From contig CP084166.1 of assembly GCA_021513695.1 (NCBI GenBank), positions 512,001-576,000 on the forward strand: DNA of 64,000 nucleotides. The letters run 5' to 3'. This DNA is from Candidatus Heimdallarchaeum aukensis. GTDB lineage: Archaea > Asgardarchaeota > Heimdallarchaeia > Heimdallarchaeales > Heimdallarchaeaceae. Each line of letters opens with the position of its first letter. Positions within the stretch are counted from its first letter, which is position 1. The translations under genes and the position numbers were made by a program. Shown here piece after piece: positions 16,400-44,044 of this stretch. Under the pieces are notes generated by a model, which worked only from the letters and a program-made list of their open reading frames with translations, was not told where the DNA came from and made no database searches.

Positions 16400-17512
16400 A
16401 TGGTATCGAGTGAGTTAGAATTATACATAAAAATAGCGCAAATAACTCTTATAACATTTATTCTTGCATACTTTATCTACAGAAGAATAAAAGATAAGAT
16501 TACTGGATTTAACTGGTTTATTTTCTTATTCATTTCAGCCTTAACTCAAGGTATTGTTGAAATGATTTTATATGGATTAACATCAAATGGTTCTATTTCA
16601 GAAAATTCTACTCTACAAGAAGTACATATCATTCCTTATGCAGTTGGGTTATTCACCTTATTCTTATATTGCGAACTAATAATGAGAGAAAGACCAAATG
16701 AGATATTATTGAGCTTTATGACTTTACTGATTGGAGCTTATTTAGCAACTTTTTCTCTAGAACTAGCTTTTAACTTAAATACAGATATCCTTCCTAAATA
16801 TCGTTTAAATAGATTAATTTTCAACATTTTCCAATTTTTTGTTCTATTGGAAGCAACACTAATGTTTGCACTGGATGCGAAGAGAGTTGAATATAAGAAA
16901 CTTAGAAGAATTTCTCTTGTTATAGCAATTGCAATAGGTACATCTGCAGTTTTTGCTTTCTTCAAAATATTGGAATACTGGGTTCTTCCTTTTTCCTTTT
17001 ATGGAGCGATACCTTATGGAATTTTATTTGGAGTTTTAGCAATTGAATTTATTGCCAATCCATTCTTTGTTTATTTGCTACCGTCAAGAATAAACAAAGT
17101 TGTAGTCATAGACGATTCTGGAGTTTTACTATTTGCTGTTAGAGTTGGAAAAGAAGAACCTGACATAATCGAAGACACATTACTTTCTGGAACACTTTCT
17201 GCTATGAAATCAGTAATAAAAGAAACAACAGGAACACAAACAGAACTTCAAAAAATAGAGTTCAGAGATAAATATATGATAGTTGCAGAGAATGAAGAAA
17301 AAACAATTTCTACGATTATTATATGCGACAGAGATTCATTTATGCTACAAACAGCAGCAAGACAATTTATCAACGCCTTTGCTAAAGAGTTTAAAGAACA
17401 TTTAGAAAAGTTTGATGGATCAATTGGTAGGTTTGGTGCTGCTACACATCTAGTGCGACGTATCTTTCCTTTTGTTCCACCTAAGGAAATAGTAGAAGTA
17501 AAAGAAAAGTAA
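16400..17512 (+). CDS. 7-TM membrane protein with C-terminal Roadblock/LC7(MglB)/longin-like domain, paralog 1
   Basis: Seven hydrophobic helices by eye. The soluble tail is KVVVIDDSGVLLFAV...DTLLSGTLSAMKSVIKETTG...LQKIEFRDKYMIVAE...ISTIIICDRD...MLQTAARQFINAFAKEF...IFPFVPP. It shares architecture and size with 19373-20479, 25404-26516 and 52633-53757. Confidence 0.6.
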   Translation: MVSSELELYIKIAQITLITFILAYFIYRRIKDKITGFNWFIFLFISALTQGIVEMILYGLTSNGSISENSTLQEVHIIPYAVGLFTLFLYCELIMRERPNEILLSFMTLLIGAYLATFSLELAFNLNTDILPKYRLNRLIFNIFQFFVLLEATLMFALDAKRVEYKKLRRISLVIAIAIGTSAVFAFFKILEYWVLPFSFYGAIPYGILFGVLAIEFIANPFFVYLLPSRINKVVVIDDSGVLLFAVRVGKEEPDIIEDTLLSGTLSAMKSVIKETTGTQTELQKIEFRDKYMIVAENEEKTISTIIICDRDSFMLQTAARQFINAFAKEFKEHLEKFDGSIGRFGAATHLVRRIFPFVPPKEIVEVKEK

Positions 17513-17651
17513 TAAGTTAGGGTTCAATTCTCTTTTTTTTAGTTTCTCTTTTATTTGAATATTAATCAAAAAGTTGGAAGAAAAAAATAAATAGTTGTTT
17601 AAGAAGCTAGAGAATTAGCAAAACTTAATCATTAAAAAATTGTAGATAAAA

Positions 17652-18557: not shown

Positions 18558-19320
18558 GGTAGTGTCTAGTTTTCTTCCGACAAAAATATTTGTGGGGACT
18601 CTAATAGTAAGATATGAAAACACAAAAACTATCTACTCTTTTTAAGAGATGCAGAGTCCCCAAAAAGATAATAATAAAAGCGATTTATGAATATATTGGT
18701 TCAAAGAATGGTTTGAGGACAGTAGCATGGAAGAATGGTTTAACGCATCAAACATTATGGTATTGGGTAAAGAAGTTCAGGCTCTTTAGGGAAAGTTTAC
18801 ATAGAGTTGTAGCAGAAAGAGGGGGAATACCAGAGATTATAGTAGTTGATGAAACAGAGATTAAGACCTCTCAAGGCTCAATATATCTGTGGTTCGCGTT
18901 AGATCCTTACAACAAGACTTTACTGGGTTTTAGTATTACTAAAGGACGGAGTAATCTTGAATGTTTACTAACTTTCCGTTATTGGTTCAAATGTTGGGGT
19001 TTTAAGCCCCGTATTGTCGTTACAGATGCAGGGGTATGGTATCCTGTCTTACTTCGTCTCGGTATCAAAATCTCTGTTATCAAAGGTGGTTTACGCTCCT
19101 ATATTGAACGTTTTAATGCCACCCTTAAGAGTTATCATTGGTTTCATTCTATTCTTCACTGTACTTGTCCTATCCGTGCCGTCTATGGCTCTACTCATCT
19201 TTCTGGTTTCCTTACTCTCTTTATGCTCCATTTTAATTTCGTTCGTCCTCATCAGAGCTTGGGACATCCTCCCCTTAGTTCTTTTTTACCTAGGAGGTGG
19301 TATAAAAACTAGACACTACC
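18558..19320 (+). mobile_element. IS6-family-like insertion sequence, intact copy
   Basis: 763 bp. Terminal inverted repeats are GGTAGTGTCTAGTTTT (18558-) and AAAACTAGACACTACC (-19320). Direct repeat of flanking DNA ATTCGCTAGA at 18548-18557 and 19321-19330. Single transposase ORF. Confidence 0.85.
18614..19312 (+). CDS. IS6-type DDE transposase
   Basis: 232 aa with an N-terminal HTH-like region. D-D-E candidates: VVDETEIK, IVVTDAGVWY, SYIERFNATLK. Confidence 0.85.
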   Translation: MKTQKLSTLFKRCRVPKKIIIKAIYEYIGSKNGLRTVAWKNGLTHQTLWYWVKKFRLFRESLHRVVAERGGIPEIIVVDETEIKTSQGSIYLWFALDPYNKTLLGFSITKGRSNLECLLTFRYWFKCWGFKPRIVVTDAGVWYPVLLRLGIKISVIKGGLRSYIERFNATLKSYHWFHSILHCTCPIRAVYGSTHLSGFLTLFMLHFNFVRPHQSLGHPPLSSFLPRRWYKN

Positions 19321-19372: not shown

Positions 19373-20479
19373 ATGGATTTAAATTTTGTAGTTTCACTTA
19401 CTATCGCAATTTTCATGTTTATTTTAGGAATTATTTTCATAGTTCAATCAATAATTAAGAAAAGAACAGCGTACGTTTTTACTTCTTCAATGTTTATAGG
19501 GATGATTGCTTCTCTTATAGAAGTCTTTAGAGTAAGTAAATTACCTAATTTGGATTTTAATTCAAGCGTTTTACTTGTAATTCATTTATCATTTTGGTGC
19601 TTGATGTATCTACTTTCTTTGATTTTCTTCATTCAGCTTGAAAAAGAAAAAATCTTATCCTATATACTTCCAGTCGTCATGATTATTTATGTTCTACACA
19701 TAACTTTCGGGATTTTTTGGATTTACTCTGGTTCTTTTCCTGATCAAGCTCAGTCAACAATAACTATGTTATGGGACTTAACTTACGCTCTCATGGGAAT
19801 ACTCACTTTCTCTTACGGTGCTTATGTCCATTTTAAAACTGGAATAAAAGCACATGAAAAAGAAGGTTATTTGTTAGGAGGAGCACTCATTTTAATAAGT
19901 ATTGGCTTCCTTTTGGGTTTCATTAAAGATTTAGGTGTAAAAGTTGATATTCAAAGTATTCCTGTTGGAGAAGTACTTAAATTAATAGGTATTTTCACCT
20001 TTATTATATTCTACATTGCAAAACCAGATTACATCTTCAGATTACCTTTCCAAATTACTTCAGTTCTTGTATTTAACAGACTTGGAATGTTAATCTATTC
20101 AGCACAATATTTGACTGAAGATGGTGATGAGGAAATAGATCCTGATGATACATCGATGGAGCTAATTACTGCAGCAGTAAATGCATTTTCAACCTTTATG
20201 AAAGAAACAACTGGAAGCGAAGAACCTCTAAAAAGAGTAAAAACAGGAGATAAACTTCTGATAGTAGAACAAGGAGATAAATGTTCTATAGCAATAATCT
20301 CTACCTCTTCTAGTTATTTCATGATACAAAGCATGAGGAAAGTAATTAAGGAACTAGAAAAGAGATATGAAAAAGAACTAGAACTTGATTATACTGACTC
20401 TACCTTTTTCAATGAAGTACCGAAACTTATTTCCTACTCTTTTCCATTCTTGGGAATACCAAAAAAAGAATTGTATTAA
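19373..20479 (+). CDS. 7-TM membrane protein with C-terminal Roadblock/longin-like domain, paralog 2
   Basis: Seven hydrophobic helices by eye. Tail: SVLVFNRLGMLIYSAQ...MELITAAVNAFSTFMKETTG...LKRVKTGDKLLIVEQGDKCSIAIISTSSS..MIQSMRKVIKELEKRYE...SFPFLGIP. Confidence 0.6.
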   Translation: MDLNFVVSLTIAIFMFILGIIFIVQSIIKKRTAYVFTSSMFIGMIASLIEVFRVSKLPNLDFNSSVLLVIHLSFWCLMYLLSLIFFIQLEKEKILSYILPVVMIIYVLHITFGIFWIYSGSFPDQAQSTITMLWDLTYALMGILTFSYGAYVHFKTGIKAHEKEGYLLGGALILISIGFLLGFIKDLGVKVDIQSIPVGEVLKLIGIFTFIIFYIAKPDYIFRLPFQITSVLVFNRLGMLIYSAQYLTEDGDEEIDPDDTSMELITAAVNAFSTFMKETTGSEEPLKRVKTGDKLLIVEQGDKCSIAIISTSSSYFMIQSMRKVIKELEKRYEKELELDYTDSTFFNEVPKLISYSFPFLGIPKKELY

Positions 20480-20495: not shown

Positions 20496-21617
20496 CTATT
20501 CTTCTTCTTTTTCAAAAGGAAAGACATAATTTAGTTTAAGATCATCGCGTAAAAAGATTAGGTCTCGAGCAATACTATCATTAATTGGTACACCATGCTC
20601 TCTTACTCTCTTTTCTGCTTCGTATTCTTTTTCTCCAGCAGTATAAATTCTTGATTCACCAGGAGCTTTTTTAGAGTTCCTGAGCTCTCTACATATCGAA
20701 CCAGAAATCTTTTTGAAAATATTTACATCAATAAAATGTTCTACGTTTATCGCAATAAAGAAATGACCAATCATAAAGTGCCTAAAAGAACCATCTTCGT
20801 TCAACCCACTTAAATCCTTTAGGAATTTTCCGTTCTGTAAAGCTGAAGATAATATCTCTACAACAGTAGAATAACCATACCCTTTATGTCCAGATAATTC
20901 TTCTCCCTTTCCTCCAAGAGGTAAAAGTGCAGCCTTTCCATTCACAAAATCAGAGATGAGCTGCTCAGCATCAGTTCTATACTCTCCAGTTTCAGTGTCT
21001 ATTACACAACCTAAAGGAAGATCTTTATTTTCCCGAGCATAAACTTCAACTTTTCCTCTTTGAATAATAGATGTAGCACAATCCAAAACAAAAGGAAAAG
21101 CTTCATCAGTAGGTATACCAAAAGTCAAAGGATTAGTGCCTAACATAGGCTCAACACCAAAAGTAGGTGCAACAGCAGGACGAGCATTTGTACCAGTAAT
21201 CCCTATACAGTTCTCTTTTACAGCCATAAGAGCATAATAACCAGCAATACCATAATGAGTACCATTACGAACAACAACCATACCTATACCAAACTTCTTA
21301 GCCTTAGAAATAGCAAGCTCCATAGCTTTATAGGAAATATAATGACCATTACCATGATGGGCATCAATAACAGCAATAGCATCTTTATCTTTAACAATTT
21401 CATATTTGCTAATAAGATGTTGCTTTCTCTTAATACGGTCATAATAATATTTTAATCGCTGAACACCATGACTTGTTATCCCGCGAAGATCTGACTCAAT
21501 TAAAACATCAGCACTAACTTGAGCTTCCTCAACAGGATAACCCAAAGAAACAAAAACATCTCGAATAAAATCATGCAATAAATCAACTGAAACATATTTC
21601 TGATTGGAATCTGTCAT
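20496..21617 (-). CDS. Ldh_2-family (malate/L-lactate/sulfolactate-type) 2-hydroxyacid dehydrogenase
   Basis: N-terminus VSADVLIESDLRGITSHGVQRLKYYYDRIK and HYGIAGYY; about 370 aa, typical of the family. Confidence 0.8.
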   Translation of the reverse strand: MTDSNQKYVSVDLLHDFIRDVFVSLGYPVEEAQVSADVLIESDLRGITSHGVQRLKYYYDRIKRKQHLISKYEIVKDKDAIAVIDAHHGNGHYISYKAMELAISKAKKFGIGMVVVRNGTHYGIAGYYALMAVKENCIGITGTNARPAVAPTFGVEPMLGTNPLTFGIPTDEAFPFVLDCATSIIQRGKVEVYARENKDLPLGCVIDTETGEYRTDAEQLISDFVNGKAALLPLGGKGEELSGHKGYGYSTVVEILSSALQNGKFLKDLSGLNEDGSFRHFMIGHFFIAINVEHFIDVNIFKKISGSICRELRNSKKAPGESRIYTAGEKEYEAEKRVREHGVPINDSIARDLIFLRDDLKLNYVFPFEKEEE

Positions 21618-21959: not shown

Positions 21960-22523
21960 TTATGATTTTTTCATTTCAAGCTGATTTACCAACCATGTAA
22001 ATGCTTCGTTTACTCCTGTTCCGTTTATTGCACTGCAGTCAAACACTGCAAAAGTTCTATCTTTCATTTCTAAATGTAGTCCTAGCAATTGTATTAGCAT
22101 TGGTGCTTGTATTGATTCTGGTAGATCTTGTTTATTTGCTATTATCAGGCAAGGTATTTTTTCTAAATACGGATTGTTAAATACATGAACTTTTAATATA
22201 TCTCTCGCTTCTGGCAATCTTTCTATATCTGCTGCATCTATTACAAATATTACTGCTGAACTTCCTGGGTAATGCACTTCCCATAGAAATCTGAACTGTT
22301 TTTGTCCTGCTACATCTACTATAGTAATATTCCAATCTGCAAAGTTTACTGTATCTATGTTTTGTCCTATTGTTGGTACTGTATCTTGAAAGTCTCCTGT
22401 GTTTACATATTTCATTAATGTAGTCTTACCTGCTGAATCTAAGCCTAAAACGATAATTTTAGCCTTTTTTTCTGATTTAAGTTTTTTCCTTAACCAAGAA
22501 GAAAACGATAGTTTAGAGCTCAT
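21960..22523 (-). CDS. Arf/Arl-like small GTPase
   Basis: KIIVLGLDSAGKTTL (P-loop in the Arf form GLDxAGKTT), VPTIGQNIDTV, DVAGQ, LWEVHY, ANKQDLP, SAINGTGVNEAFTWLVNQL. N-terminal basic amphipathic segment MSSKLSFSSWLRKKLKSEKK without Gly2. Confidence 0.9.
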   Translation of the reverse strand: MSSKLSFSSWLRKKLKSEKKAKIIVLGLDSAGKTTLMKYVNTGDFQDTVPTIGQNIDTVNFADWNITIVDVAGQKQFRFLWEVHYPGSSAVIFVIDAADIERLPEARDILKVHVFNNPYLEKIPCLIIANKQDLPESIQAPMLIQLLGLHLEMKDRTFAVFDCSAINGTGVNEAFTWLVNQLEMKKS

Positions 22524-22615
22524 TGTGTATTATTTCTTTATTCTAATTACCCATTAATAAAAATTGTCTAAGTCTTCAACAATAAAAAAAGAAAGTGATA
22601 AATCTTAAAAAAAAA

Positions 22616-24808
22616 TTATTGGTGTTTCTTTGCTAATTCTATTAGTTCAGGAAAGTCCATTCCTAGTTCTTTTAATTTTTCTATAGTAGGTACACCGTTT
22701 TCTGTCCATCCTCTTCTTTCATATACAGCTTTTTTCAACTTTTCATACCTTTCTTCTCTGTATTTTCTTATTGCGGCCATCTTTTCTTCTACTGTCATGT
22801 TTGTTGGATCTACACCTACTTTTTCTTTTAGTTCTTTAAGGTAGTATTTGTCTTCTCTGGACAGGTATTCTTCTTTTGTTACTGGACCCATAGCTCTAAA
22901 GGGTATAGTGTCTAATTCTTTGTAAGTTACACCTTCTGGAATGAAAAGTAAATTCATTACTCTTTGGAAGTTATAGACTCTTTCACTCATTTTAATATAT
23001 TCTCTAGAATCTATATTATTACCTGTTACACTATTGAAGTATTGGACATAATTTAGAACGTGTTCTGGCACTTTTGCAGGGTCGGCTAGATCTTCAGGAA
23101 CAGTCATTCCATGCTTTTCTATCTTTCCTTCTGCAAATTCTTTATTATCTTCTGGAACAATATCGTTCCAAGGTAACTTACATAGACCTAATAGTCCAAA
23201 GGAAGTTCTCCACATTGGGAACCACCATAGAGCTTCTGCTTTTTGTTCGAAAGTGGGCATAAAGTTATGCACCATGTCTAGAAAGATTAACCATGCTTCA
23301 TCGTGCTGTGGTCCCTTGAGTGTAAGACCATATCCTCCTTGTTGTGCAAGTGACTCTTTTGTCATATATTCGCTAAATTCTAGACCTTTAGATTCCATTC
23401 CTATATCGTCCAAAAGTTTGGCTTCTTCCTCACTCAAGTTAAACTCTTTCTTGAAGTACTCTTTCATGTATCTAATTCCTTTACCGAATATTTTACCGAA
23501 CCCATCTCCTTTTGCTACTTGGTGAATAACTTCCATTGCTCCTTCAAAATTGCCCCAAGAGAGATCTATTCCTCCAGTTCTTTCTTTGTTTAATATTCCG
23601 TATTCGTAGCACTCCATACAGAAGGCCATACCTGTTCCTACACTAATAGTATCTAAACCATAGTTATCACAATAGAAATTAACTTCAATAACATGGTCTG
23701 GGTCCCACATGTACCAGTTAGAACCTACTCCAGCAGCTGTTTCATATTCTGGACCGTCGACAGTTACTTTTTGACCTTTGTATGGTCCAGTTTTACATTC
23801 AAAACTACTCACACCATGAGTACATCCTACTGTACATCCTTTCCAACATGGGTCTGGTCCTTTTTCAAATCTCTTATAATAAGCTTCTTTACCTATTTTT
23901 TCTGCTTGTGGGTCAGAACCAAATTTGAAGTTCTTTGTTGGTAAAAGGTCAAAATCATTCATTATTGGAATCAAATGTATAGTTCCAATATTTCTCATAT
24001 CGTTTTGCTTTGGATCGAGTTCAGTTATTTCTTTACTGTGTCTCTTGGCTACTTCTTTCTCTGCTTCAGGATTAGCAGGATTGTTAGATTTGACGTTAAC
24101 ATTGCTTTTTCTTACAACTAGAGCTTTTATTTTCTTATTTCTAAATACAGTTCCTGTTCCTCCTCTTCCGGCTTGTTTATATCTTACATATCCTCTTTTA
24201 CCGTCAAACCAACTGAAATTTAAGCAACCCATATAAGCATTTTCTGCTCCAGGACCTGCAGATACAACAGAAATATTTCTTTTATCTTTTTCATCTACTG
24301 CATATCTCTCAGTAAGTATTTTTCCTATCTGAAAAGTTTCTGAAGGTAAATCTTCTGCTTCTTCGATGATTATTTTTCCATTATCTCCATCAATAAAAAT
24401 GACTAATTCTTTTTCTGCTTTACCTTGAATGGCCATAGCATCGAAACCTGCAAATTTGAGAAAAGGACCAAAATATCCTCCAACGTTTGAATCAACCAAA
24501 ATACCAGTTAATGGAGAAATGGCTGTTACAATACTTTTACCTGAACCAGGATAGTTGGTTGTTCCACCTAATGGTCCAGAAGCTATACAAAGAACATTAT
24601 CTGGGTCATCCCATTTTACTTTTTTGTCTTTAGGAATATATTTCCAAGTTAGCCAAAGATCAAATCCCCTTCCACCTATGAATTTTTCTTTCATTTCTTC
24701 TGTAACATCTTCTATTTTTGCTTCTAACGTTTCTAAATTAATGTACAATGTTTTGTTAGCATATCCTTTATCTATTACTGGAACTTCATAATTTATCTCT
24801 TTAATCAT
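22616..24808 (-). CDS. aor: tungsten-type aldehyde:ferredoxin oxidoreductase family protein
   Basis: GGRGFDLWL, GPEYETAAGVGSNW, GLDTISVGTGMAFCMECYE, and Cys ligand region CWKGCTVGCTH. At 730 aa it has a C-terminal extension relative to the roughly 600-aa members I recall. Confidence 0.9.
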   Translation of the reverse strand: MIKEINYEVPVIDKGYANKTLYINLETLEAKIEDVTEEMKEKFIGGRGFDLWLTWKYIPKDKKVKWDDPDNVLCIASGPLGGTTNYPGSGKSIVTAISPLTGILVDSNVGGYFGPFLKFAGFDAMAIQGKAEKELVIFIDGDNGKIIIEEAEDLPSETFQIGKILTERYAVDEKDKRNISVVSAGPGAENAYMGCLNFSWFDGKRGYVRYKQAGRGGTGTVFRNKKIKALVVRKSNVNVKSNNPANPEAEKEVAKRHSKEITELDPKQNDMRNIGTIHLIPIMNDFDLLPTKNFKFGSDPQAEKIGKEAYYKRFEKGPDPCWKGCTVGCTHGVSSFECKTGPYKGQKVTVDGPEYETAAGVGSNWYMWDPDHVIEVNFYCDNYGLDTISVGTGMAFCMECYEYGILNKERTGGIDLSWGNFEGAMEVIHQVAKGDGFGKIFGKGIRYMKEYFKKEFNLSEEEAKLLDDIGMESKGLEFSEYMTKESLAQQGGYGLTLKGPQHDEAWLIFLDMVHNFMPTFEQKAEALWWFPMWRTSFGLLGLCKLPWNDIVPEDNKEFAEGKIEKHGMTVPEDLADPAKVPEHVLNYVQYFNSVTGNNIDSREYIKMSERVYNFQRVMNLLFIPEGVTYKELDTIPFRAMGPVTKEEYLSREDKYYLKELKEKVGVDPTNMTVEEKMAAIRKYREERYEKLKKAVYERRGWTENGVPTIEKLKELGMDFPELIELAKKHQ

Positions 24809-24928
24809 ATTAATACACCCGAGAATATCGTTATAAATACGAAAAAAATCAACTATATAATTTTAACTCTATCTCGTCAAGTATTAAAGAAAACTAACTT
24901 TTTCTTTTAACTAAAAAGAAAGTTAACT

Positions 24929-25348
24929 TTACGAAGAATTATCAATCTTAAATTTATTAGCATTTTTGGGTTCGTGTCCAGCTTCAAAAGATTGTATCTC
25001 AAGAGTATATCTGTCAGGATCATTAAAGAAGATGTTATAAATTTGATATTTTTCGTACATACTAGGCTCTTTAGTTAGATTGACACCTTTCTCTTTAAGG
25101 TATTTCGCCCAAAGATTCACTTCATCTGGTGTTTCAACAACTAATGTTAAACATGTTTTCTCAGGATTTGAAATTTCTTCACTTGTTTCACAGAATCCCC
25201 AGTAACCATTTGAACCTATGTTATAAATTATACAGTTTGTCTGCTCTAAGGCAACTTCAAGTTCTAATAGACCAGAATAGAACTTTTTATTTTCTTCTAA
25301 ATTTTTTGTTTTCAAAAAGGTAATAGGATAAATAATTTTTGGAAGCAT
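24929..25348 (-). CDS. glyoxalase/VOC-superfamily protein
   Basis: 139 aa; TFLKTKNLEENKKFYSGLLELEV ... FNDPDRYTLEIQ fits the paired beta-alpha-beta-beta-beta pattern. Confidence 0.55.
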   Translation of the reverse strand: MLPKIIYPITFLKTKNLEENKKFYSGLLELEVALEQTNCIIYNIGSNGYWGFCETSEEISNPEKTCLTLVVETPDEVNLWAKYLKEKGVNLTKEPSMYEKYQIYNIFFNDPDRYTLEIQSFEAGHEPKNANKFKIDNSS

Positions 25349-25403
25349 ATATTAAATAAGTTATTCTTCTTTTAAAAATTTCTTGAGAATGTATGGATTT
25401 TTT

Positions 25404-26516
25404 TCAAACTCCAACTGTTAGTTTTGATTCATCTACAAATGGGAAGTACAATGGAATGTATTTCACTGCATCATCGAAAACAGAGGCATCTCCGCTAAAA
25501 CATACAATCTGCTCTCTAAACATTGAATTAAACTTGTTTACAAAATGTTCAAGTGAAGTGTCAAATATCCTTACCCTTCTATCAACTATTAACACTCCGA
25601 TAATATCATCTTTCTCTTTGGTTATCATGACTCTATCTTTTAGTTCAACACATTTTAATAACTGATAGGATGAATTGGTTACTTCAGAAATAAAATGAGC
25701 AAAAGCGTTAATCATTCCCCCAATTAACAAACCCTCTGATTCTTTTTTAGAATAGTTTGAAGCAGAGAAAAGAGTTGTTCCATTTTTATTAATTATTAAG
25801 AAGTTAAAAATCTCTGCAGAAGTGAATAAGACAAATTTAGGGTCAATTAAATAAATGACCAAAGTTACACCGAGAGCTAACCCAAAACCTATAGCACCAT
25901 ATGTTTCTAAAGGAACTACATGTTCCAAAAATTCCAAAATAGCCACTATAAAAGCTATAAAGAAGCTTATCCATAATAGTAATGTATGATATTGAGCTTT
26001 TTTACCTACACTCTTAACAAAGGTAAAAGTTATTCCTACTAAACATACTGTAACAACATATAGTTGAAAAAAATCTAAAAACCAAATATATAAACAGTCA
26101 TTCTTTGTTGGAACCTTCAAATTCGTAGAGATCGGGGGTAAATCAAAGAAAATATTTATCAAATAAGTAACAAATAAAGAAAAAATAATAATGTAACCTG
26201 CTTGAACTACTCTACGATCCCAAGCGTTGAAGTTACTAAAATGTATTAAAATATATAGAAATACAAGAGCATAAGGAATAATCTCTAAAGAAGGTAAATA
26301 ACTATTTTCTAAATATGCCCACTGATAACCTGCTACACGGGCAAAATAGAAAAAGAATTCTACTACACTTTGTATAATCGCCAGAATTAATGCAGCAATT
26401 AAATTTTTATAACCTTGAACTTTGTTTACTGTGCTCCGATAAGAAAAAACACCTAACATAATCAAAATAATAACAACTTGAAATAGTTTGAATATCGCTT
26501 GGCTTAGAGTTTCCAA
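25404..26516 (-). CDS. 7-TM membrane protein with C-terminal Roadblock/longin-like domain, paralog 3
   Basis: Seven hydrophobic helices by eye. Tail: FNFLIINKNGTTLFSAS...GLLIGGMINAFAHFISEVTN..LLKCVELKDRVMITKEKDDIIGVLIVDRR..FDTSLEHFVNKFNSMF...YFPFVDE. Confidence 0.6.
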   Translation of the reverse strand: METLSQAIFKLFQVVIILIMLGVFSYRSTVNKVQGYKNLIAALILAIIQSVVEFFFYFARVAGYQWAYLENSYLPSLEIIPYALVFLYILIHFSNFNAWDRRVVQAGYIIIFSLFVTYLINIFFDLPPISTNLKVPTKNDCLYIWFLDFFQLYVVTVCLVGITFTFVKSVGKKAQYHTLLLWISFFIAFIVAILEFLEHVVPLETYGAIGFGLALGVTLVIYLIDPKFVLFTSAEIFNFLIINKNGTTLFSASNYSKKESEGLLIGGMINAFAHFISEVTNSSYQLLKCVELKDRVMITKEKDDIIGVLIVDRRVRIFDTSLEHFVNKFNSMFREQIVCFSGDASVFDDAVKYIPLYFPFVDESKLTVGV

Positions 26517-26647
26517 AGTAAATCAATTAATTGATTATATTTCTATTATATTAAATTTATGTAAAAATGCCAAAGTTACATTTTAGAAAAGATATTGAAA
26601 AAATATACTAAAACTTCTTGAATTACATATTTTTCTTTAATGAGATA

Positions 26648-26935
26648 TCATCCCCCTGCAACAAAAGGAAGTATCGATATTTCAGTTTTATCTTCAGTTA
26701 CTAGATAAGTTGACAGCTCTTCATGATGAATAGTTTTGCTATTTATCATTATATTATAAAAAGAATGTAGCTTTTTATTTGTAAATAGGAGTCCATCAAG
26801 CTCTGGATACGTCTTAGTTAAAAATTCTATTGCTTCTAAAACAGTTATTTCCTTATCTTCTAATTCAATTTCGACTTCTGCTTTATTTCCTAAAGTAGAC
26901 CTTAACTGACCAAACAAGCGAAAAATAACTCTCAT
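26648..26935 (-). CDS. MoaD/ThiS-type beta-grasp (ubiquitin-like) protein ending in Gly-Gly
   Basis: 95 aa. MoaD-like start MRVIFRLFGQLRSTLG and C-terminus ...ILPFVAGG directly followed by the stop. Confidence 0.7.
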   Translation of the reverse strand: MRVIFRLFGQLRSTLGNKAEVEIELEDKEITVLEAIEFLTKTYPELDGLLFTNKKLHSFYNIMINSKTIHHEELSTYLVTEDKTEISILPFVAGG

Positions 26936-27000
26936 TCTTTTTCCTCTGATAAGATAAAGTAGATTAAAAGAATAAAATTGTTATGTTTTGTCAATTCTTT

Positions 27001-27561
27001 TTATATAGAATTTACCTCAAAGAATTTGACTATATTTTCTATAAGAGTAATAAAAGCTCTTTCTACATTTTCTCCTGTTTTAGCTGAAGTTTCTATATAA
27101 GGTACTTCGAATCCACTCCAATTACTTAGGCTTTTGGCATAATCTGCAGCATATTCATATGGTACTGCATTAGGAGTTGAATCACGAAGATCAGATTTGT
27201 TTCCAATTAAAAGCATAGGAACAATCTTATTTTTGTTATTCTTGATTAACTCATGAATCCAATTAGGTAATAATTCATATGTTTCAGGTCTTGAAATGTC
27301 AAAAACTAGCAAAGCACCTGAAGTTCCTCGATAATATACTTCTCTCACTGCAGAAAAACGTTGTTGTCCTGCTAAATCCCATATCTGTAGAGTATACTCA
27401 ATATTATTTAGTAGCATTTTCTTTACTGCAAAGTCTGCACCTACTGTCATGGCATATCCTGATTCAAAAGTTTCTCCTAAATATCGACGTCTTAACGATG
27501 TTTTACCTACTGCTCCTTCACCAAGCAATGAAACTTTAAAGATTCTCTGCACTTTTTTCAT
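27001..27561 (-). CDS. Rab/Ras-like small GTPase
   Basis: LLGEGAVGKTSL (P-loop), WDLAGQQRF, YYRGTSGALLVFDIS, GNKSDL, ETSAKTGENVERAF. No C-terminal Cys (ends FFEVNSI). Confidence 0.9.
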   Translation of the reverse strand: MKKVQRIFKVSLLGEGAVGKTSLRRRYLGETFESGYAMTVGADFAVKKMLLNNIEYTLQIWDLAGQQRFSAVREVYYRGTSGALLVFDISRPETYELLPNWIHELIKNNKNKIVPMLLIGNKSDLRDSTPNAVPYEYAADYAKSLSNWSGFEVPYIETSAKTGENVERAFITLIENIVKFFEVNSI

Positions 27562-27717: not shown

Positions 27718-29088
27718 ATGAGTGAAGAAACAGTTGTTATTCAAAATCCTTTACTAGTGTGTAAGTACATTAAAAAATTTACTCATTATCCAGAATTTGA
27801 TAGAATTTTAATAGATAATTTAGATTGGAAAAGAGAAGATATTATTGGAATCTCCATTATTCCTATTGTAGATACTGTTCCATCAGGCAAAAATGCAATC
27901 TTTAGAATATTTATTTCAAACATGGGAGAAACAACACAAAAGGTAAAAGTTCATGTTCGTACTTTTGGTTATTTAAGCAAAAAAGAAAAGTTAAATAGAA
28001 GCCAAATAGCATTTAAAAAATTAATTATCAACAACAATGAAGTATGGTATAGAGATGTTATCATACCAAGTGATATAAAATTAGGTAAAAACTTTTTCCA
28101 GCTTGTCGTTAAATATAAAGTAAACAAAAAGAAAAGAATAATCTATGAAATTAAAGAATATACAGAGATTATGCCTTTAGATCATATAAAACAGATTGCC
28201 AGACAAAACTTTTTAGGACTTGCCCAAAAGCCCTACATTGATCCTTCTTCAATAAGTTATTGGATATATTGCTCTCTTTTTGGTTCTAGAAATTATTCAA
28301 AAGAACCAACTTTCATTTATATAACTAAATGGATTGTTTTTCTTCTAAGTATTTCTACTATTGGTGCTTACTTCACTTTACCTTTACCTGAAATAGTTCT
28401 TTATATCAGTTCAGGAGGAGCTTTGCTTTCTTTCCTAACCTTTTTTACTGATTTAGATAGACATACAGTCCGTGAGATACATGATTTAGGTTTAACTGAA
28501 TTAAAAAGAAAAGCCTTCATAGATAACATCCCGAAAAAAACCGAATGGCTTAAGTTATTCACTCTGAAAAGTGATTATTTCTATTTCATTGAAGAAGAAT
28601 CAACTTTTGCATGGAAAACTAGTACAGATAATTCATTTAAACCAGTTATTTATTCTTTAAATCAAGTTTTAGATACACAATTAAGTATAAAAGAAGGAAC
28701 AAAAGAAGAGGAAGAAAGAATAATTGAAGAAATAATAACTAATAGGAAAATAGAAAAAATTAAAACAAAAACAAAAACGAAAGAAGAAGTAGAAGAACAC
28801 GAAGGTATTGTTTTTGAAGAAGATTTGTCCATAAGTTTTGATGCAAAGATGCAAATACTTGATAGTATAACTTCATATACTGTACCTAGCAAAGCAATTG
28901 AATTAGAAGATAGTTTTGAACTTCCTGTAGAAATAATAAAAACAGAAACATTCATAGAACCTGATTCTGTAGCTTTTGATGTTTTAGATAAACCTTTTAC
29001 AACTGATTTAGAACCAATAATTACAGACAGTGAAAGTATAGACTCTAAAGGTTCACTGAAATTCAAGAAAACAAACATAGATGTATAA
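27718..29088 (+). CDS. membrane protein with N-terminal beta-rich domain and acidic C-terminal tail, function unknown
   Basis: 456 aa, divergent from the Rab-like gene. Two adjacent hydrophobic helices (WIVFLLSISTIGAYFTLPLPEIVLYISSGGALLSFLTFF). Glu/Lys-rich tail. Confidence 0.5.
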   Translation: MSEETVVIQNPLLVCKYIKKFTHYPEFDRILIDNLDWKREDIIGISIIPIVDTVPSGKNAIFRIFISNMGETTQKVKVHVRTFGYLSKKEKLNRSQIAFKKLIINNNEVWYRDVIIPSDIKLGKNFFQLVVKYKVNKKKRIIYEIKEYTEIMPLDHIKQIARQNFLGLAQKPYIDPSSISYWIYCSLFGSRNYSKEPTFIYITKWIVFLLSISTIGAYFTLPLPEIVLYISSGGALLSFLTFFTDLDRHTVREIHDLGLTELKRKAFIDNIPKKTEWLKLFTLKSDYFYFIEEESTFAWKTSTDNSFKPVIYSLNQVLDTQLSIKEGTKEEEERIIEEIITNRKIEKIKTKTKTKEEVEEHEGIVFEEDLSISFDAKMQILDSITSYTVPSKAIELEDSFELPVEIIKTETFIEPDSVAFDVLDKPFTTDLEPIITDSESIDSKGSLKFKKTNIDV

Positions 29089-29181: not shown

Positions 29182-29943
29182 TTGGTCGATTCAATGATTA
29201 CTGGAACACATCCTTCAACTATTGCCGAAGAAGATTATTTTTCATTTATTGGTATTTTTCTTTCAGTTCCGTTTTTTATTGCTTATTTTGTAAATGAGAT
29301 GATTCTAGCTTTATTCAGACTCACAAAATACGAAAGAGAGATTGGAACACCTGTTACTGCCCCTTATCCTACTTGGAGAATGATTAATGCTGTTATTTAT
29401 GCAGTAGCAATTATTATTTTAGCTCTTCAAGTTTTAAGTTGGAGTGTAACCTATCGAAGATATGAATTCAGAAAACTTGCAAAAAGAACTGTTTTTGCTT
29501 TTCTTATTACAGCTATTTTTGTAATTATTTTTGAGTACTTACAGATTTCAATGCCTGTTCAACCTAGAGATCAATCAGATATTACTGTGCCATTTTTCAC
29601 TTTAGTAGGCTTTCATTTGTGGTCTTTTGTTAGTTTTAAACAAGTTATAGAGCATTTAGGAAAACATTACAAAACTAGAGTAGGTGATTCTATATTTTAC
29701 ATTCTCTTTGCAAGCTATCCATTCATTAAATTTGGATTACCCATAATATTATTGATATTTGTCAGTTTGGCAATGTCTCCTTATGCTTTTATTCTCTATT
29801 CTGAAATAACAATGGCATACCTAGTCGGTTTCATTTCAATTGCTCTTGGTGTTGTTCTTATAAATGATGTTGTTAAAATTGGAAGAGCGCAAGATCATTA
29901 TTTTTTCACAAAAGAGAGCACCGAAAACAAAAAAGAGGATTAA
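29182..29943 (+). CDS. polytopic membrane protein, function unknown
   Basis: 253-aa ORF with several hydrophobic helices. The track start is TTG; an in-frame ATG at 29194 is an alternative start. Confidence 0.5.
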   Translation: MVDSMITGTHPSTIAEEDYFSFIGIFLSVPFFIAYFVNEMILALFRLTKYEREIGTPVTAPYPTWRMINAVIYAVAIIILALQVLSWSVTYRRYEFRKLAKRTVFAFLITAIFVIIFEYLQISMPVQPRDQSDITVPFFTLVGFHLWSFVSFKQVIEHLGKHYKTRVGDSIFYILFASYPFIKFGLPIILLIFVSLAMSPYAFILYSEITMAYLVGFISIALGVVLINDVVKIGRAQDHYFFTKESTENKKED

Positions 29944-30584
29944 CTTTTTTTCTCTTTTTTATCTTTAATTTTGTAGTATAAGATTTCTAGTCCAGGTTTG
30001 ACTATAAATACAATTACAAGAACACTAACTCCAATCCCAATGATTATAAAAAGTATTTTTAACAAATCGCTATTATCTTGCAGAGGATCAGAAATATATT
30101 GTTCAGTTTCGTGATTTATTGCAATTTTTATTTTTTCTTCAAGAGTTGAAGCGTAGGTAAATCCTTCAAATATGGCTACTATATAATTATAATCATCTAA
30201 AATTATTATAAATGGAACAATTCTTATCTTGTAATCTACGACTGTTTTATTAGTTACATACCCCATTATCCAGTTTTCAGAAAGATTATTTTCTTTTTTA
30301 TAATCTAAAAGTTGTTCATTTGTTTTGTTGAATTTTGCAGATAGACCGAAGATTGTAATGTTATACCTCTCTTCTACTTCTTTTATTTCATCTATTTCAA
30401 GATGACAATTTGGGCAAGTAGGAAGATAGACAAAAACTATTTTTATACCTGAATAATAAGTAACATCATCATTTTCTCCTTCTGTGTTTATAAAAGATAT
30501 ACTAACATTACTAGCATTGGCAAATAAAGAACTTAATGAAATTACTATTATGAACACTGATAGGAAATGAATTATTTTTCTCAT
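29940..30584 (-). CDS. extracytoplasmic thioredoxin-fold protein (CxxC), membrane anchored
   Basis: Signal peptide MRKIIHFLSVFIIVISLSSLFANA, active-site-like VYLPTCPNCHLE, and C-terminal TM ILFIIIGIGVSVLVIVFIV plus a Lys-rich tail. Confidence 0.6.
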   Translation of the reverse strand: MRKIIHFLSVFIIVISLSSLFANASNVSISFINTEGENDDVTYYSGIKIVFVYLPTCPNCHLEIDEIKEVEERYNITIFGLSAKFNKTNEQLLDYKKENNLSENWIMGYVTNKTVVDYKIRIVPFIIILDDYNYIVAIFEGFTYASTLEEKIKIAINHETEQYISDPLQDNSDLLKILFIIIGIGVSVLVIVFIVKPGLEILYYKIKDKKEKKS

Positions 30585-30708: not shown

Positions 30709-32706
30709 TTGACACTACAAGATTCTGACTTTGATATTCCAGAAGAATTTTCTTCTTATAACAAGTTTTTAATGGAAAACAAGAAAATCATTTTACCTAA
30801 AATAAAAGAATGGATGAAAAAAGGAAAAACTTTTTTCCAATCATTGGTCTATGCATGTGATGAGATAGGTTCAGAGCTACCTACTCCAGATGTGTTAAAA
30901 CCCACTTTCTTAGAAATAGCTATAATTGGATATTTCCTTTTAGATGAATATGAAAAAGTATTGAAAATAGAGACTATAAGCGATAATTTTCTTTCAAACT
31001 ACTTTAAATATAAATCTGCTTGGTTATTAGGTCACAAGAAAGCACAAGCTTACCTAGCTGATCTTGTACCGTCATTAATGGAGTTAAAAAAGCAAAATAA
31101 AGAGATTTACGAAATCTGTAACAATATAATCTCTCTTGAGGTAAGTTTCATCTCTTCTAACAAAGAAAATATATTAAAACATGCTGCACAGTTCAAGCAA
31201 GATCTTTTTGATAAATCACTTATCACTACTTTTCCTCTTTTGGCTATCGAAATTGCAGGAGATTTAGCTTACAGAGAATACAGAACTGGAGATCCTGCTT
31301 TCTCTGGTTGGCTTGAAATCTATAAAGAATTAGTAGAAGCTTTTAACATGGATTCTAGGAGATTAGACTGCTACACCATTTTAGGTGGTCTTTACAGGTA
31401 CAAGGGATATTTAGAAGATGCAGAAGAATATTACAAAAGAGCTATGGAATTATCAGAAAAAATAGGAAACGAAAAAGCATACAACGAAATAATAGCAAAG
31501 ATAGCGGATTTTGAACACACTAGAGGAAACTTTGACGTTGCTTTAAAACTCTGTCTGGATGTCATTCAAAAAACTGAAGGAAAAGGAGAGATTAACAAGT
31601 CAATTTACATAAATTTAGGCGAAATCTTAATTAAACAACAAAAGTACGAAGAAGCAGTAAAATATCTGAAAAAATTAGAGAACGATGAGTCTCAAGAAAC
31701 AGCTATAATTAACATTCTCCACGGTTATGCCTTAACTAAATTAGATGAAAAAGAATTATATAATAGTGGAATCAAATTACTGGAAAAGGGAGGAGCTTTA
31801 AGCGAGAAAACAGGAAATAGAAGATTTTTGACAATTTATTACTATTACAGAGGAAGAGCTCATTTAGACAGTTATGACTTGTCTTCAGCTATAAAGAACT
31901 TTGAAATGTGTTATAATACAGCAATAAATACAGAGTTTCAATATGTTCTTTTTTCTCAAATCTACTTGGCAGTAGCTTATCTTCACCGTTTCAAAGTTTC
32001 TCAACAAGATGCAGATCTTACTCAATCAAAACATTATGTTGCAAATGTAATCACGATATGTAAAGAGCAAAACTTACCTATTTTGGCTAACATTCTACTT
32101 CTACAAGGTCAAATTCTAATGGTTTTAGAGGAGTATATTGATGCAAAGCATATTTTAGAACAAGCAGTGATTGAAGCAGAAAAAGTTGAACTTGACTGGA
32201 CAAAAGAAAAAGCTGAACAGTATCTAGAACTATTGTACTCTAATGAACGAATTAAAAACCAAATTCTGATAAATGAAATAACTGAACTAATTGATAATAT
32301 TGCCAAGTTTTCTTTCCAGAAAAATATTGAGTATTTACCTCATTTTTACTTCTTAATGCTTATGTATAAAGGAAATGAATTAATTACTAAAAGTTTTGAC
32401 AAAGAATTTGAAGAGAAAAGTCACTTAGTTAAAGATTTGGTTCATGCAGTAGCTAGCTTCGATGAATATGAGGGTATAAGAAGCATAAATTTTGAAGGAA
32501 TAACGTTAATAATAGAAAAAGTAAGAAATATTACAGCAATACTTGCTAGTGATTCAGATAGTTTTAATGCTAGAATAAAAATAATTGAAATATTAAAAAA
32601 CTTGCAAAAATACCTCCAATCAATTGTAACAGAAGAAGATGAGATATTCATTACTATATTAAAAGATAAAGCACTGAGAATAATAGAAAAAACTTTTGAA
32701 ACCTAA
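30709..32706 (+). CDS. TPR-repeat protein with C-terminal Roadblock/longin-like domain
   Basis: TPR units (ILGGLYRYKGYLEDAEEYYKRAMEL; YINLGEILIKQQKYEEAVKYLKKL). Tail: HFYFLMLMYKGNELITKSF...HLVKDLVHAVASFDEYEGIRSINFEGITLIIEKVRNITAILASDSD..NARIKIIEILKNLQ. TTG start in the track; the first ATG is at 30772. Confidence 0.6.
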   Translation: MTLQDSDFDIPEEFSSYNKFLMENKKIILPKIKEWMKKGKTFFQSLVYACDEIGSELPTPDVLKPTFLEIAIIGYFLLDEYEKVLKIETISDNFLSNYFKYKSAWLLGHKKAQAYLADLVPSLMELKKQNKEIYEICNNIISLEVSFISSNKENILKHAAQFKQDLFDKSLITTFPLLAIEIAGDLAYREYRTGDPAFSGWLEIYKELVEAFNMDSRRLDCYTILGGLYRYKGYLEDAEEYYKRAMELSEKIGNEKAYNEIIAKIADFEHTRGNFDVALKLCLDVIQKTEGKGEINKSIYINLGEILIKQQKYEEAVKYLKKLENDESQETAIINILHGYALTKLDEKELYNSGIKLLEKGGALSEKTGNRRFLTIYYYYRGRAHLDSYDLSSAIKNFEMCYNTAINTEFQYVLFSQIYLAVAYLHRFKVSQQDADLTQSKHYVANVITICKEQNLPILANILLLQGQILMVLEEYIDAKHILEQAVIEAEKVELDWTKEKAEQYLELLYSNERIKNQILINEITELIDNIAKFSFQKNIEYLPHFYFLMLMYKGNELITKSFDKEFEEKSHLVKDLVHAVASFDEYEGIRSINFEGITLIIEKVRNITAILASDSDSFNARIKIIEILKNLQKYLQSIVTEEDEIFITILKDKALRIIEKTFET

Positions 32707-35960: not shown

Positions 35961-35961
35961 A

Positions 35962-37284
35962 ATGCCAAAAGAAGAAAAAGAAGAACAGAAAAAGATGTTT
36001 CACCTAAGAAACGAAGAAACCTTTACTAGAATGCATTTAAGGAAAGAAAAGAAAGGACAAGGAATACTAATAGTTAACGCCAACAGAATCTTTCACCTAA
36101 ATAAAACAGCAACTCAATTCGTTGAATACATAATAGAAGGAAAAAAAGATGAAGAAATAATAAGAAAAATGGTTAACAAATACAATGTTCACGAATCACA
36201 AATAAGAACAGATCTAATGAATCTGAAGATCGCAATAGAAGATATAGTAAATAAACCAGATATTGACCCGGTACAAGAACTGTTTGACGAAGATATGGAA
36301 ATGGAGAGAATGATTTTTTCAGCTCCATTGAGAATGGACTTGGCTATAACTTACAAATGCAATAACAAATGTGTCAAATGCTACGTTGAAGAAAAAAGAG
36401 AAATAAAAGAATTAACAACAGAAGAATGGAAAAAAGTCTTAGATAAACTGTGGGATATAGGTATTCCCCACGTAACATTTACTGGAGGAGAACCCACAAC
36501 AAGAAAAGATTTAGTGAAACTAGTAGAATACGCAGAAGATATAGGCATAGTAACGGGACTAATAACCAACGGAAGAAACCTGAAAGACAAAAAGTTAGTA
36601 GAAGAACTAGTAGCAGCAGGAATAGATCATTTCCAAATAACAATAGAAAGCCATATACCAGAAGTACATGATAAATTAACAGGAGTAAAAGGATCGTGGG
36701 AAGAAACAGTAGAAGGAATAAAAAACGTTGTACCTACACCAGTGTTTATTATGACAAACACAACTCTAGTTCCAGAAAACATAAAAGAAATAGATAAAAC
36801 AATAGAATTTTTAGCTAAGTTGGGAATAGACCACTTCGCAGCAAACGGAATAATAAAAGCTGGAGGAGGAAAAGATGACTCACTAGACTTAACAGTAGAA
36901 GAACTAAACAAAACACTAGATACAATAATGAAGAAAGCTGAAGAAATGAAAATGAGATTTCTATGGTACTCACCAACAAGATATTGTGAATTTAACCCAG
37001 TAAAGAAAGGACTAGGAGTAAAACAATGTACAGCAGGAAATATAGCAATGGCAATAGAACCAGATGGACAAGTAATACCATGCCAAAGCTACTTTGAACC
37101 ACTAGGAAACATATTAACTACTCCATGGAAAAAAATATGGAACCATAAAACAACAAAAAGAATAAGAAAAAGAAAATACTTGCCCCAAGAATGCAAAGGC
37201 TGCCCAGAAAAAGAAATATGCGGAGGAGGATGCCCTCTAAATTATCAAGCGCCAATAACTGTTTGCAGAGACGCTCTTTCGTAA
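35962..37284 (+). CDS. radical SAM / SPASM-domain peptide-modifying enzyme with N-terminal PqqD-like (RRE) domain
   Basis: PqqD-like ILIVNANRIFHLNKTATQFVEYIIEGKKDEEIIRKMVNKYNV...DLMNLKIAIEDI; CNNKCVKC (Cx3Cx2C); FTGGEP. SPASM pattern C-x12-G-x4-C (CTAGNIAMAIEPDGQVIPC), CKGCPEKEICGGGC (Cx2Cx5Cx3C) and a final Cys. Start moved from the ORF-track 35890 to the SD-preceded ATG at 35962. Confidence 0.9.
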   Translation: MPKEEKEEQKKMFHLRNEETFTRMHLRKEKKGQGILIVNANRIFHLNKTATQFVEYIIEGKKDEEIIRKMVNKYNVHESQIRTDLMNLKIAIEDIVNKPDIDPVQELFDEDMEMERMIFSAPLRMDLAITYKCNNKCVKCYVEEKREIKELTTEEWKKVLDKLWDIGIPHVTFTGGEPTTRKDLVKLVEYAEDIGIVTGLITNGRNLKDKKLVEELVAAGIDHFQITIESHIPEVHDKLTGVKGSWEETVEGIKNVVPTPVFIMTNTTLVPENIKEIDKTIEFLAKLGIDHFAANGIIKAGGGKDDSLDLTVEELNKTLDTIMKKAEEMKMRFLWYSPTRYCEFNPVKKGLGVKQCTAGNIAMAIEPDGQVIPCQSYFEPLGNILTTPWKKIWNHKTTKRIRKRKYLPQECKGCPEKEICGGGCPLNYQAPITVCRDALS

Positions 37285-43875: not shown

Positions 43876-44044
43876 TATTTCATTTTAAAGTAGTTTATTT
43901 ATCAAGTTCAACTTGCATAAAAGAATACAAATAAAACTAATACGAAAAATCGATGAAAAACATAAGATTCACAGAATGGATAAAATAAGACAGAAAAAAA
44001 ATATAATATTTCATATTTTTTTCTAAAAACTAAAATTAGTGAAA

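Follow-up and report, generated by a model that had tools for sequence, protein, structure and literature searches.

A seven-helix membrane protein with a longin-type domain, encoded between Rab-like and Arf-like small GTPases of a Heimdall archaeon, as a possible GTPase docking partner

In a stretch of 64,000 nucleotides from Candidatus Heimdallarchaeum aukensis (CP084166.1, positions 512,001-576,000 of the forward strand; hereafter the window, whose numbering is used throughout), we have found that a membrane protein encoded between a Rab-like and an Arf-like small GTPase is modelled as a bundle of seven transmembrane (TM) helices followed by a predicted cytoplasmic domain of longin type. 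The cluster in question (21960-27561) consists of six open reading frames (ORFs), all on the minus strand, which in the direction of transcription encode the Rab-like GTPase, a ThiS/MoaD-like β-grasp protein, the seven-helix (7TM) longin protein, a VOC protein, an aldehyde:ferredoxin oxidoreductase (AOR) and the Arf-like GTPase. An initial annotation, made from the sequence alone, had noted these six genes within 5.6 kb, separated by spacers of 55-131 nt, and had proposed that the two GTPases, both lacking signals for lipid attachment, could be recruited to the membrane via the protein encoded between them, described there as a 7TM-Roadblock protein. Its coordinates have proved exact for every gene, the spacers measure 65, 131, 55, 120 and 92 nt, and Pfam matches bear out the Rab-like, beta-grasp, VOC, AOR and Arf-like labels. 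The observation has thus been largely confirmed, and the recruitment idea appears plausible, though only in part: the membrane protein does offer a fold, predicted to be cytoplasmic, of the kind known from GTPase platforms, and the adjacency is recurrent, but the fold is that of a longin and not of a Roadblock domain, and the Arf-like protein has a helix of its own for membrane contact. We tentatively propose that the 7TM-longin protein may act as a sensor or anchor in the membrane, with a longin domain that would provide a docking site for a small GTPase and perhaps activate it, the Rab-like protein being the best local candidate. This proposal draws on what the analysis has established, namely the models of the genes, the identities of their domains, fold class and topology, and how the gene orders are distributed.

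The 7TM-longin protein (25404-26516, minus strand) comprises 370 residues, starts with TTG and had been counted as the third paralog of its kind, which is consistent with the four paralogs that the window holds (at 16400, 19373, 25404 and 52633). Sequence searches of Pfam, NCBIfam and the PDB (the latter by phmmer) have returned no match at all, and its architecture has been read from models. The full-length AlphaFold2 (AF2) model (pLDDT 76, pTM 0.69) shows seven TM helices, in agreement with hydropathy, and a C-terminal α/β domain. The membrane domain (residues 1-230; 25827-26516, minus strand) adopts a helix arrangement whose packing is structurally closest to G-protein-coupled receptors (GPCRs), at a sequence identity of 5-14%, a likeness of fold that does not amount to homology. 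Averaged over 72 homologs, the number of lysines and arginines is 3.6, 1.3 and 2.5 in loops 1, 3 and 5 and 0.1, 0.5, 1.0 and 0.6 in the N-terminus and loops 2, 4 and 6; according to the positive-inside rule the protein is therefore predicted to lie N-out/C-in, which would place the longin domain in the cytoplasm. An incorrectly assigned TTG start, and with it a protein of only six TM helices, has been rejected, since residues 1-19 can be aligned to orthologs beginning with Met, and the codons show conservation across three genomes.

A separate model of the C-terminal domain (residues 236-357; 25446-25811, minus strand), built with 48 homologs, has reached a pLDDT of 91.4 and a pTM of 0.86, and its elements follow the order β1-β2-α1-β3-β4-β5-α2-α3. 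This is the longin topology, and the closest structural neighbours are longins, with VAMP7, CCZ1, TRAPPC4, MON1 and δ-COP among those listed. Weak sequence-profile signals point the same way: the window protein matches the curated profile Intu_longin_1 at E 0.013 (16 bits, below the cutoff of 23.7), Fuz_longin_1 is matched by eight of the 72 family members (best 1.4e-4) and Sybindin by two, and the profile of the family itself matches TRAPPC1 and Trs23 in the β1-β2 region (E 0.016-0.05). Since longin and Roadblock are related folds, the earlier Roadblock label has been right at the level of the superfold, but it fails at the level of the family. The domain lacks the N-terminal helix of the Roadblock order α-β-β-α-β-β-β and carries the two C-terminal longin helices, and the Roadblock profile Robl_LC7 (PF03259) is matched by a single one of the 72 members (E 0.068), which is not the window protein. 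The annotation's own version, in which the C-terminal domain would be a Roadblock/MglB-type GTPase-activating protein (GAP) for the adjacent GTPases, can appeal to this relatedness of folds and to the established GAP function of a Roadblock domain in MglA/MglB (PMC9481161), yet both GTPases of the cluster keep the catalytic Gln (DLAGQ and DVAGQ), unlike MglA-type GTPases. Taken with the topology, this leaves the strict GAP version as the least likely of the readings considered, and a rather improbable one; because the domain is a longin and not a Roadblock, a guanine-nucleotide exchange factor (GEF) or a docking platform would be the closer precedent.

An exhaustive profile search has shown that the 7TM-longin protein belongs to a large family, with 2,306 representative clusters at E≤1e-3 and 636 at E≤1e-10, mostly full-length proteins of 350-390 residues, of which every named member is annotated as a hypothetical protein. 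Nine of the ten members with an organism name are from Asgard archaea (Heimdallarchaeaceae, Heimdallarchaeota, Kariarchaeaceae, Hodarchaeota, Promethearchaeota and 'Asgard group'), and the family is confined to Asgard archaea as far as its named members show. An occurrence in bacteria has been rejected: the lone member labelled Zixibacteria has a gene context common to Heimdall contigs and is probably mis-binned. On contig BPTO01000040.1 (locus L013, 5382-6463), a second, tandem 7TM-longin copy is split into a TM ORF of 241 residues and a longin ORF of 120 residues, and represents a pseudogene due to a frameshift or else a natural split form of the gene.

The Rab-like protein (27001-27561, minus strand; 186 residues) is matched by Pfam Ras at 2.3e-46, and its motifs GEGAVGKT, DLAGQ, NKSD and SAK, read from the sequence, are those of a Ras-type G domain closest to Rab. 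Its best PDB sequence match is a Thorarchaeota Rab (7ezb, 1e-38), followed by Rab1, Rab7 and Rab11 (~1e-33). The protein stops straight after helix α5 and has no hypervariable tail; it ends ...KFFEVNSI at residue 186, as the annotation had noted together with the missing C-terminal Cys, and a Cys in the last ten residues has been found in none of 26 orthologs and in none of 58 Thor-type relatives. Since neither a tail nor a Cys occurs in any ortholog, the Rab-like protein appears to have no evident membrane anchor of its own. The Arf-like protein (21960-22523, minus strand; 187 residues; Pfam Arf 1.3e-47) is covered by the Arf profile from position 2 to 173 of 174, has an Arf-type G domain and finds its best PDB matches in Arf1 and Arf2 (4e-35). 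Its N-terminus, MSSKLSFSSWLRKKLKSEKK, is predicted to form a basic amphipathic helix (residues ~3-20; nt 22464-22517) with a net charge of +4 to +6, in which the 11-mer FSSWLRKKLKS reaches the maximum hydrophobic moment of 0.55 at a net charge of +4. The motif is kept in both other orthologs found (L001 and L013), and residue 2 is Ser in all three, in place of the Gly needed for N-myristoylation, so that the basic amphipathic N-terminus and the absence of Gly2 reported before both hold. A residue other than Gly at position 2 is typical for Asgard Arfs, and work from 2025 has demonstrated for some of these that an amphipathic helix lets them bind membranes, dependent on GTP and without myristate (PMC11914678). 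The Arf-like protein thus more probably reaches the membrane via its own conserved, predicted helix.

According to the proposal, the 7TM-longin protein would be embedded in the membrane as a sensor or anchor, and its longin domain would dock a small GTPase there and could promote nucleotide exchange, in the manner of the longin domains of TRAPP, Mon1-Ccz1, Fuzzy-Inturned and SRα-SRβ. The tail-less Rab-like protein would be the best local candidate for the client of this domain, and the Arf-like protein would use its own amphipathic helix. The proposal is supported by the fold, as the longin type is that of eukaryotic docking and GEF platforms for small GTPases. A physical or functional coupling of a GTPase to the 7TM-longin protein is what we infer from this fold, together with the predicted topology and the gene order. 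Two routes to the membrane are known for GTPases without a lipid, namely recruitment of the Ragulator type and insertion of a helix. The recruitment of Rag GTPases by Ragulator matches the idea put forward for the Rab-like protein, with the differences that Ragulator is anchored by the lipidated LAMTOR1 and not by TM helices, and that its domains are Roadblock domains. The insertion of an amphipathic helix by Sar1 and Asgard Arfs (PMC11914678) corresponds to the N-terminus of the Arf-like protein; those Asgard Arfs have been tested experimentally, whereas the helix described here is read from sequence.

For the conservation of the neighbourhood, the 7TM copies have been sorted into four orthogroups A-D, the protein between the GTPases being a member of group A, and six orthogroups have been sampled for gene context. 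The window genome is that of a Heimdallarchaeum-type Asgard archaeon, and its Rab-like protein shares 97% identity with the one from Ca. H. endolithica PR6. In the window, in PR6 (CP084167.1; L017) and in L002, whose 7TM proteins are 88-100% identical, the order is Rab-ThiS-A(-VOC-AOR-Arf), and at a 7TM identity of 48% L001 has Rab-ThiS-A-AOR-Arf. In L014 the 7TM protein is 33% and the Rab-like protein 65% identical, and Rab-ThiS-A-VOC is followed by unrelated genes. As L014 branches outside the other Heimdall loci in a crude Rab tree, the adjacency of Rab, ThiS and 7TM group A is present in two non-sister Heimdall lineages. The L013 locus (7TM identity 38-39%) has its split tandem copy followed by A-VOC-AOR-Arf, with Rab and ThiS 11 kb away beside paralog C, and L016 (34-35%) keeps A-AOR only. 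On the Arf side, a metagenome scan with the Arf-like protein has yielded a single 1-kb locus at 30% identity, and the adjacency is known from three loci. A looser supercluster of Rab, ThiS, the 7TM paralogs A, B and C, VOC, AOR, Arf and an Ldh_2-family gene recurs across the Heimdallarchaeaceae. In the window and in L001, a neighbourhood of 11 kb contains three 7TM-longin paralogs and two GTPases, and the same gene set is spread across ~13 kb on contig BPTO01000040.1 (L013/L035). Besides the anchor gene, neither the ~200 kb of Heimdall flanks nor the remaining 58 kb of the window has yielded a small GTPase; at so low a density, the two GTPases in 5.6 kb are modestly above chance, by an estimate made post hoc. 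The locus is therefore best described as a conserved yet rearranging neighbourhood of four blocks: Rab-like plus MoaD/ThiS-like; 7TM-longin; VOC/AOR/Ldh_2; and Arf-like.

The spacers give some indication of how these blocks may be transcribed. Although the six genes are co-directional, with spacers of 55-131 nt, only the junction from Rab to ThiS (26936-27000, minus strand; 65 nt) has no run of five or more T and carries a Shine-Dalgarno-like motif (AGAGGA, 6-8 nt before the ATG), and it is probably an intra-operon junction of a Rab-like/ThiS-like bicistron. The spacer from ThiS to the 7TM gene contains an AT-rich block of 25 nt, TACATAAATTTAATATAA-AGAAAT (26539-26563, minus strand), which is located 24-48 nt upstream of the TTG start and preceded by runs of T6 and T5. 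The window, Ca. H. endolithica PR6 and L002 share this block without a change, while the remainder of the spacer has acquired indels and substitutions, which makes the block a candidate promoter of the 7TM gene, with B recognition element and TATA box. From AOR to Arf (22524-22615, minus strand; 92 nt), the spacer starts with T9, followed by T7 and T5, which is the strongest archaeal terminator-like signal of the cluster, although T-runs are common at 30% GC. The likely transcription units are Rab-ThiS, 7TM(-VOC), AOR and Arf.

A number of these and further observations weigh against a coupling of the 7TM-longin protein to the neighbouring GTPases. The Arf-like protein, with a conserved amphipathic helix of its own, would need no membrane partner, because such a helix suffices for some Asgard Arfs (PMC11914678). 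Asgard GTPases in general lack lipid anchors, as has been discussed since 2016 (PMC4917890, PMC11914678). The full-length AF2 model has been built on an alignment of six sequences, and AF2 may favour a GPCR-like packing in any 7TM protein. The TATA-like block and the T-runs before the 7TM gene suggest that it is transcribed apart from Rab-ThiS. As to gene order, a check of the Rab/7TM adjacency across Asgard genomes, which the annotation had called for, has given a divided answer: beside the two lineages that keep it, ~20 Heimdallarchaeota genomes have the order Rab, ComD/ComE-like decarboxylase, ThiS instead, six of these Rab-decarboxylase-ThiS genomes, in which the full downstream flank is available, have no 7TM gene within 6 kb, and neither a 7TM nor a ThiS gene occurs at any of 57 Rab loci of the Thor/Hermod/Prometh type. 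The group-A orthologs of L013 and L016 have no adjacent Rab-ThiS, group A is most constantly accompanied by VOC and AOR and not by a GTPase, and the orthogroups D, P0150 and P0050, which lie outside the supercluster, have no GTPase within ~6 kb. For MK-D1, Tran et al. (PMC10933270) have reported that GTPases and their regulators generally do not share operons, so that the evidence from synteny is weak both ways; the matching of GTPases and regulators from genome layout has been reported to be difficult (PMC10933270).

Much of this would equally follow if the synteny were simply inherited, with the related Heimdallarchaeaceae genomes still partly collinear and the 7TM-longin protein uncoupled from the local GTPases, e.g., reporting a metabolite to the redox enzymes or pairing with partners encoded elsewhere. 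We regard this explanation as a serious possibility and give it the same weight as the docking proposal. The whole ~20 kb, including the genes for a TPR protein and for proteins of 214, 253 and 456 residues upstream, is collinear in the window, PR6 and L001, and relatives further removed have a mosaic gene order. Of the seven loci with downstream sequence, six have VOC and/or AOR after group A (AOR in the window, L001, L013, L016 and L017; VOC adjacent to the 7TM ortholog in L013, L014 and L017, not in L001 and L016), which is commoner than Rab-ThiS before group A. The candidate promoter of the 7TM gene, the three sampled orthogroups without GTPase neighbours and the MK-D1 precedent fit as well. 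What inheritance accounts for less readily is that Rab-ThiS-7TM persists in the outside-branching lineage at 33% 7TM and 65% Rab identity, since unselected archaeal gene order usually decays before such distances are reached, and that three paralogs and two GTPases are co-localised in several genomes. Longin domains also count against it: to our knowledge, they have been found in almost all characterised cases to be partners of small GTPases or SNAREs.

The robust pair of the neighbourhood, as judged from gene order, is formed by the Rab-like and the ThiS-like gene, the former being the invariant upstream partner of the latter in all Heimdall loci. The ThiS-like protein (26648-26935, minus strand; 95 residues) is a β-grasp protein of the ThiS/MoaD/SAMP type with a C-terminal Gly-Gly (...PFVAGG), matched by Pfam ThiS at 3.9e-10 (40.6 bits, cutoff 22.5) and, below the NCBIfam cutoffs, by SAMP1 (8e-13; 48.7 bits, cutoff 60) and MoaD_arch (5e-11; 42.9 bits, cutoff 49.5); a ThiS/MoaD protein (4n6e_B) and a SAMP1 homolog are its PDB matches. 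The tail PF[VI][AS]GG is present in all 21 orthologs, two of which end GGM. In the ~20 further Heimdallarchaeota genomes mentioned above (L018-L039; Rab-like proteins 72-77% identical), the gene follows directly on a split thiamine pyrophosphate-dependent decarboxylase that resembles the α and β subunits of sulfopyruvate/phosphonopyruvate decarboxylase (ComD/ComE-like; 1e-34 and 8e-38), itself downstream of the Rab-like gene. The order is tight and co-directional, e.g., in L024 (5995-8014), as an association of a GTPase, a metabolic enzyme and a β-grasp protein. The redox genes of the window are those for the VOC/glyoxalase-fold protein (24929-25348, minus strand; 139 residues; Pfam Glyoxalase 1.1e-7), for AOR of the tungstopterin enzyme family (22616-24808, minus strand; 730 residues; AFOR_N 9e-52, AFOR_C 2e-94) and, beyond the Arf-like gene, for an Ldh_2-family 2-hydroxyacid dehydrogenase (20496-21617, minus strand; Pfam Ldh_2 2.6e-114), which matches the NCBIfam L-sulfolactate dehydrogenase at 1e-73, under the cutoff, and is kept in the wider neighbourhood of L001, L013, L016, L035 and L036. 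PR6 has two VOC-similar ORFs ~1.2 kb apart (L017, 8216-10149), which suggests that its VOC gene is disrupted or duplicated relative to the window.

On these grounds the locus might instead be a metabolic or cofactor module, in which the MoaD/ThiS-like protein would serve as a sulfur carrier, e.g., for the tungstopterin of AOR or another thio-cofactor, and Ldh_2, the decarboxylase of the sister genomes and AOR would convert a 2-hydroxyacid via the 2-oxoacid and the aldehyde to the acid, with the GTPases and the 7TM protein as bystanders or regulators. The invariant Gly-Gly tail, the ThiS match and the similarity to MoaD_arch and SAMP1 are in line with a sulfur carrier, and enzymes of the AOR family require a pterin cofactor; the decarboxylase subunits directly before the ThiS-like gene, the resemblance of Ldh_2 to L-sulfolactate dehydrogenase and the recurrence of Ldh_2 and AOR in the neighbourhood would suit the pathway. 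Several points are at odds with it, however. All NCBIfam equivalog scores are under cutoff, no MoaE, MoeB or E1-like gene has been found among the neighbouring and window ORFs scanned (a part of the genome), the decarboxylase is missing from the cluster of the window, and the invariant Rab-like gene upstream of the ThiS-like gene is left unexplained. We consider such a module unlikely as the account of the locus, though it is compatible with the other readings.

Set against known systems, the locus is built from parts of known kinds, namely Asgard Rab-like and Arf-like GTPases, longin and Roadblock proteins, and prokaryotic 7TM receptors with output domains. With the eukaryotic longin platforms (TRAPP Bet5/Trs23, Mon1-Ccz1, Fuzzy-Inturned, SRα SRX-SRβ), the domain of the 7TM-longin protein shares 10-16% identity, and it is known here from sequence and models. 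The prokaryotic 7TM receptors of the 7TMR-DISM class, such as E. coli DgcT and CdgI, which have been described as GPCR-like (PMC10760455), likewise combine a GPCR-like seven-helix bundle, N-out/C-in, with one cytoplasmic domain. The 7TM-longin family differs from this class in that its output is a longin domain and not a GGDEF, histidine-kinase or cyclase domain, and in that it has no extracellular sensor domain of the DISMED type; the Pfam profile 7TMR-DISM_7TM is matched weakly by four of the 72 members (best E 1e-3), and not by the window protein. The Asgard Roadblock/longin and GTPase systems have in common with it the organism group, the superfold and the idea of regulating an expanded repertoire of small GTPases, and the closest solved relative of the Rab-like protein, Thor-Rab, is also from Asgard archaea. 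Structures of Roadblock and longin proteins have been reported for MK-D1 (PMC10933270), and an operon of a LAMTOR1-like Roadblock-superfamily member, a Rab-like and a DENN protein, conserved in Asgard archaea (bioRxiv 10.1101/2020.10.19.343400), is a precedent for the docking proposal. The proteins described in these systems occur in soluble form or as fusions with GTPase, TRAPPC3 or two-component domains, whereas the one reported here is anchored by seven TM helices. In the literature searched, a fusion of a GPCR-like 7TM bundle with a longin domain as a large Asgard family has not been found, although it may be listed without comment in the asCOG tables.

Three clonable proteins are offered by the locus: the Rab-like one without a tail, the integral-membrane one with its longin domain, predicted to be cytoplasmic, and the Arf-like one, which has a helix of its own. 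Binding or activation of one of the two GTPases by the longin domain would constitute a receptor-anchored recruitment of GTPases in the closest archaeal relatives of eukaryotes, and would have implications for how longin-based GEFs and the coupling of 7TM receptors to GTPases arose. In a bolder form, which we consider quite doubtful, Asgard archaea, at least the Heimdall group, would possess GPCR-like receptors whose longin domain directly docks and activates Rab-like or Arf-like GTPases, a receptor-coupled switch of prokaryotic origin. Such a switch would join two eukaryotic principles, the 7TM receptor as exchange factor and the longin GEF platform, in one polypeptide, and would supply the missing membrane address for the lipid-free Asgard GTPases, whose targeting and regulation have been an open question since 2016 (PMC4917890). 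Should no GTPase be bound, the family would still represent an uncharacterised class of Asgard 7TM receptors with a new output domain, comprising ~2,300 clusters.

The other 7TM-longin paralogs of the window are encoded at 19373-20479 (plus strand; orthogroup B, supported by blastp and profile matches, with a 52% identical ortholog in L001 at 16435-17523), at 16400-17512 (plus strand; orthogroup C, 28% identical to the group-A protein at E 3e-27, with orthologs in L001, L016, L035 and L036) and at 52633-53757 (minus strand; orthogroup D). Next to the orthologs of group D stands a gene of the GH3 family (acyl-acid amido synthetase-like) and no GTPase gene; in L003-L012 the two genes are always convergent, on at least four distinct Heimdall contig types, and the member labelled Zixibacteria belongs to this orthogroup. 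Among the relatives of the Rab-like gene, most loci of the Thorarchaeota type (L040-L096) have a second, convergent Rab-like gene 1.2-3 kb downstream, an arrangement suggestive of a conserved pair of GTPases.

Upstream of the Rab-like gene, the window encodes a protein of 456 residues with two central TM helices (27718-29088, plus strand), whose L001 ortholog has a weak Presenilin match, a multi-TM protein of 253 residues (29182-29943, plus strand) and a thioredoxin-like protein of 214 residues with the motif CPNC (29940-30584, minus strand). These membrane or secreted proteins accompany the Rab-like gene in Heimdall loci with enough upstream flank. The conserved tetratricopeptide repeat (TPR) protein of 665 residues (30709-32706, plus strand) is encoded three genes upstream of the Rab-like gene. 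Its C-terminal ~135 residues, by eye β-β-α-β-β-β-α, have not been accepted as longin- or Roadblock-like, given an hhalign probability of 19% against the longin profile of the 7TM family.

Near-identical ORFs are repeated in the window (18614-19312 and 49281-49643; 2532-3229 and 50724-51670; 89-93% amino-acid identity). They are copies of insertion sequences, one pair with an rve integrase core, and one copy lies between paralogs C and B of the 7TM family. A radical SAM/SPASM protein with a PqqD-like domain (35890-37284, plus strand), of the type that matures ribosomally synthesized and post-translationally modified peptides, adjoins an unannotated secreted protein of 566 residues. Large secreted repeat proteins (37636-45541, minus strand; 56563-57276 and 59043-61805, plus strand) are mutually 35-73% identical in segments, which suggests an expanding family of surface proteins.

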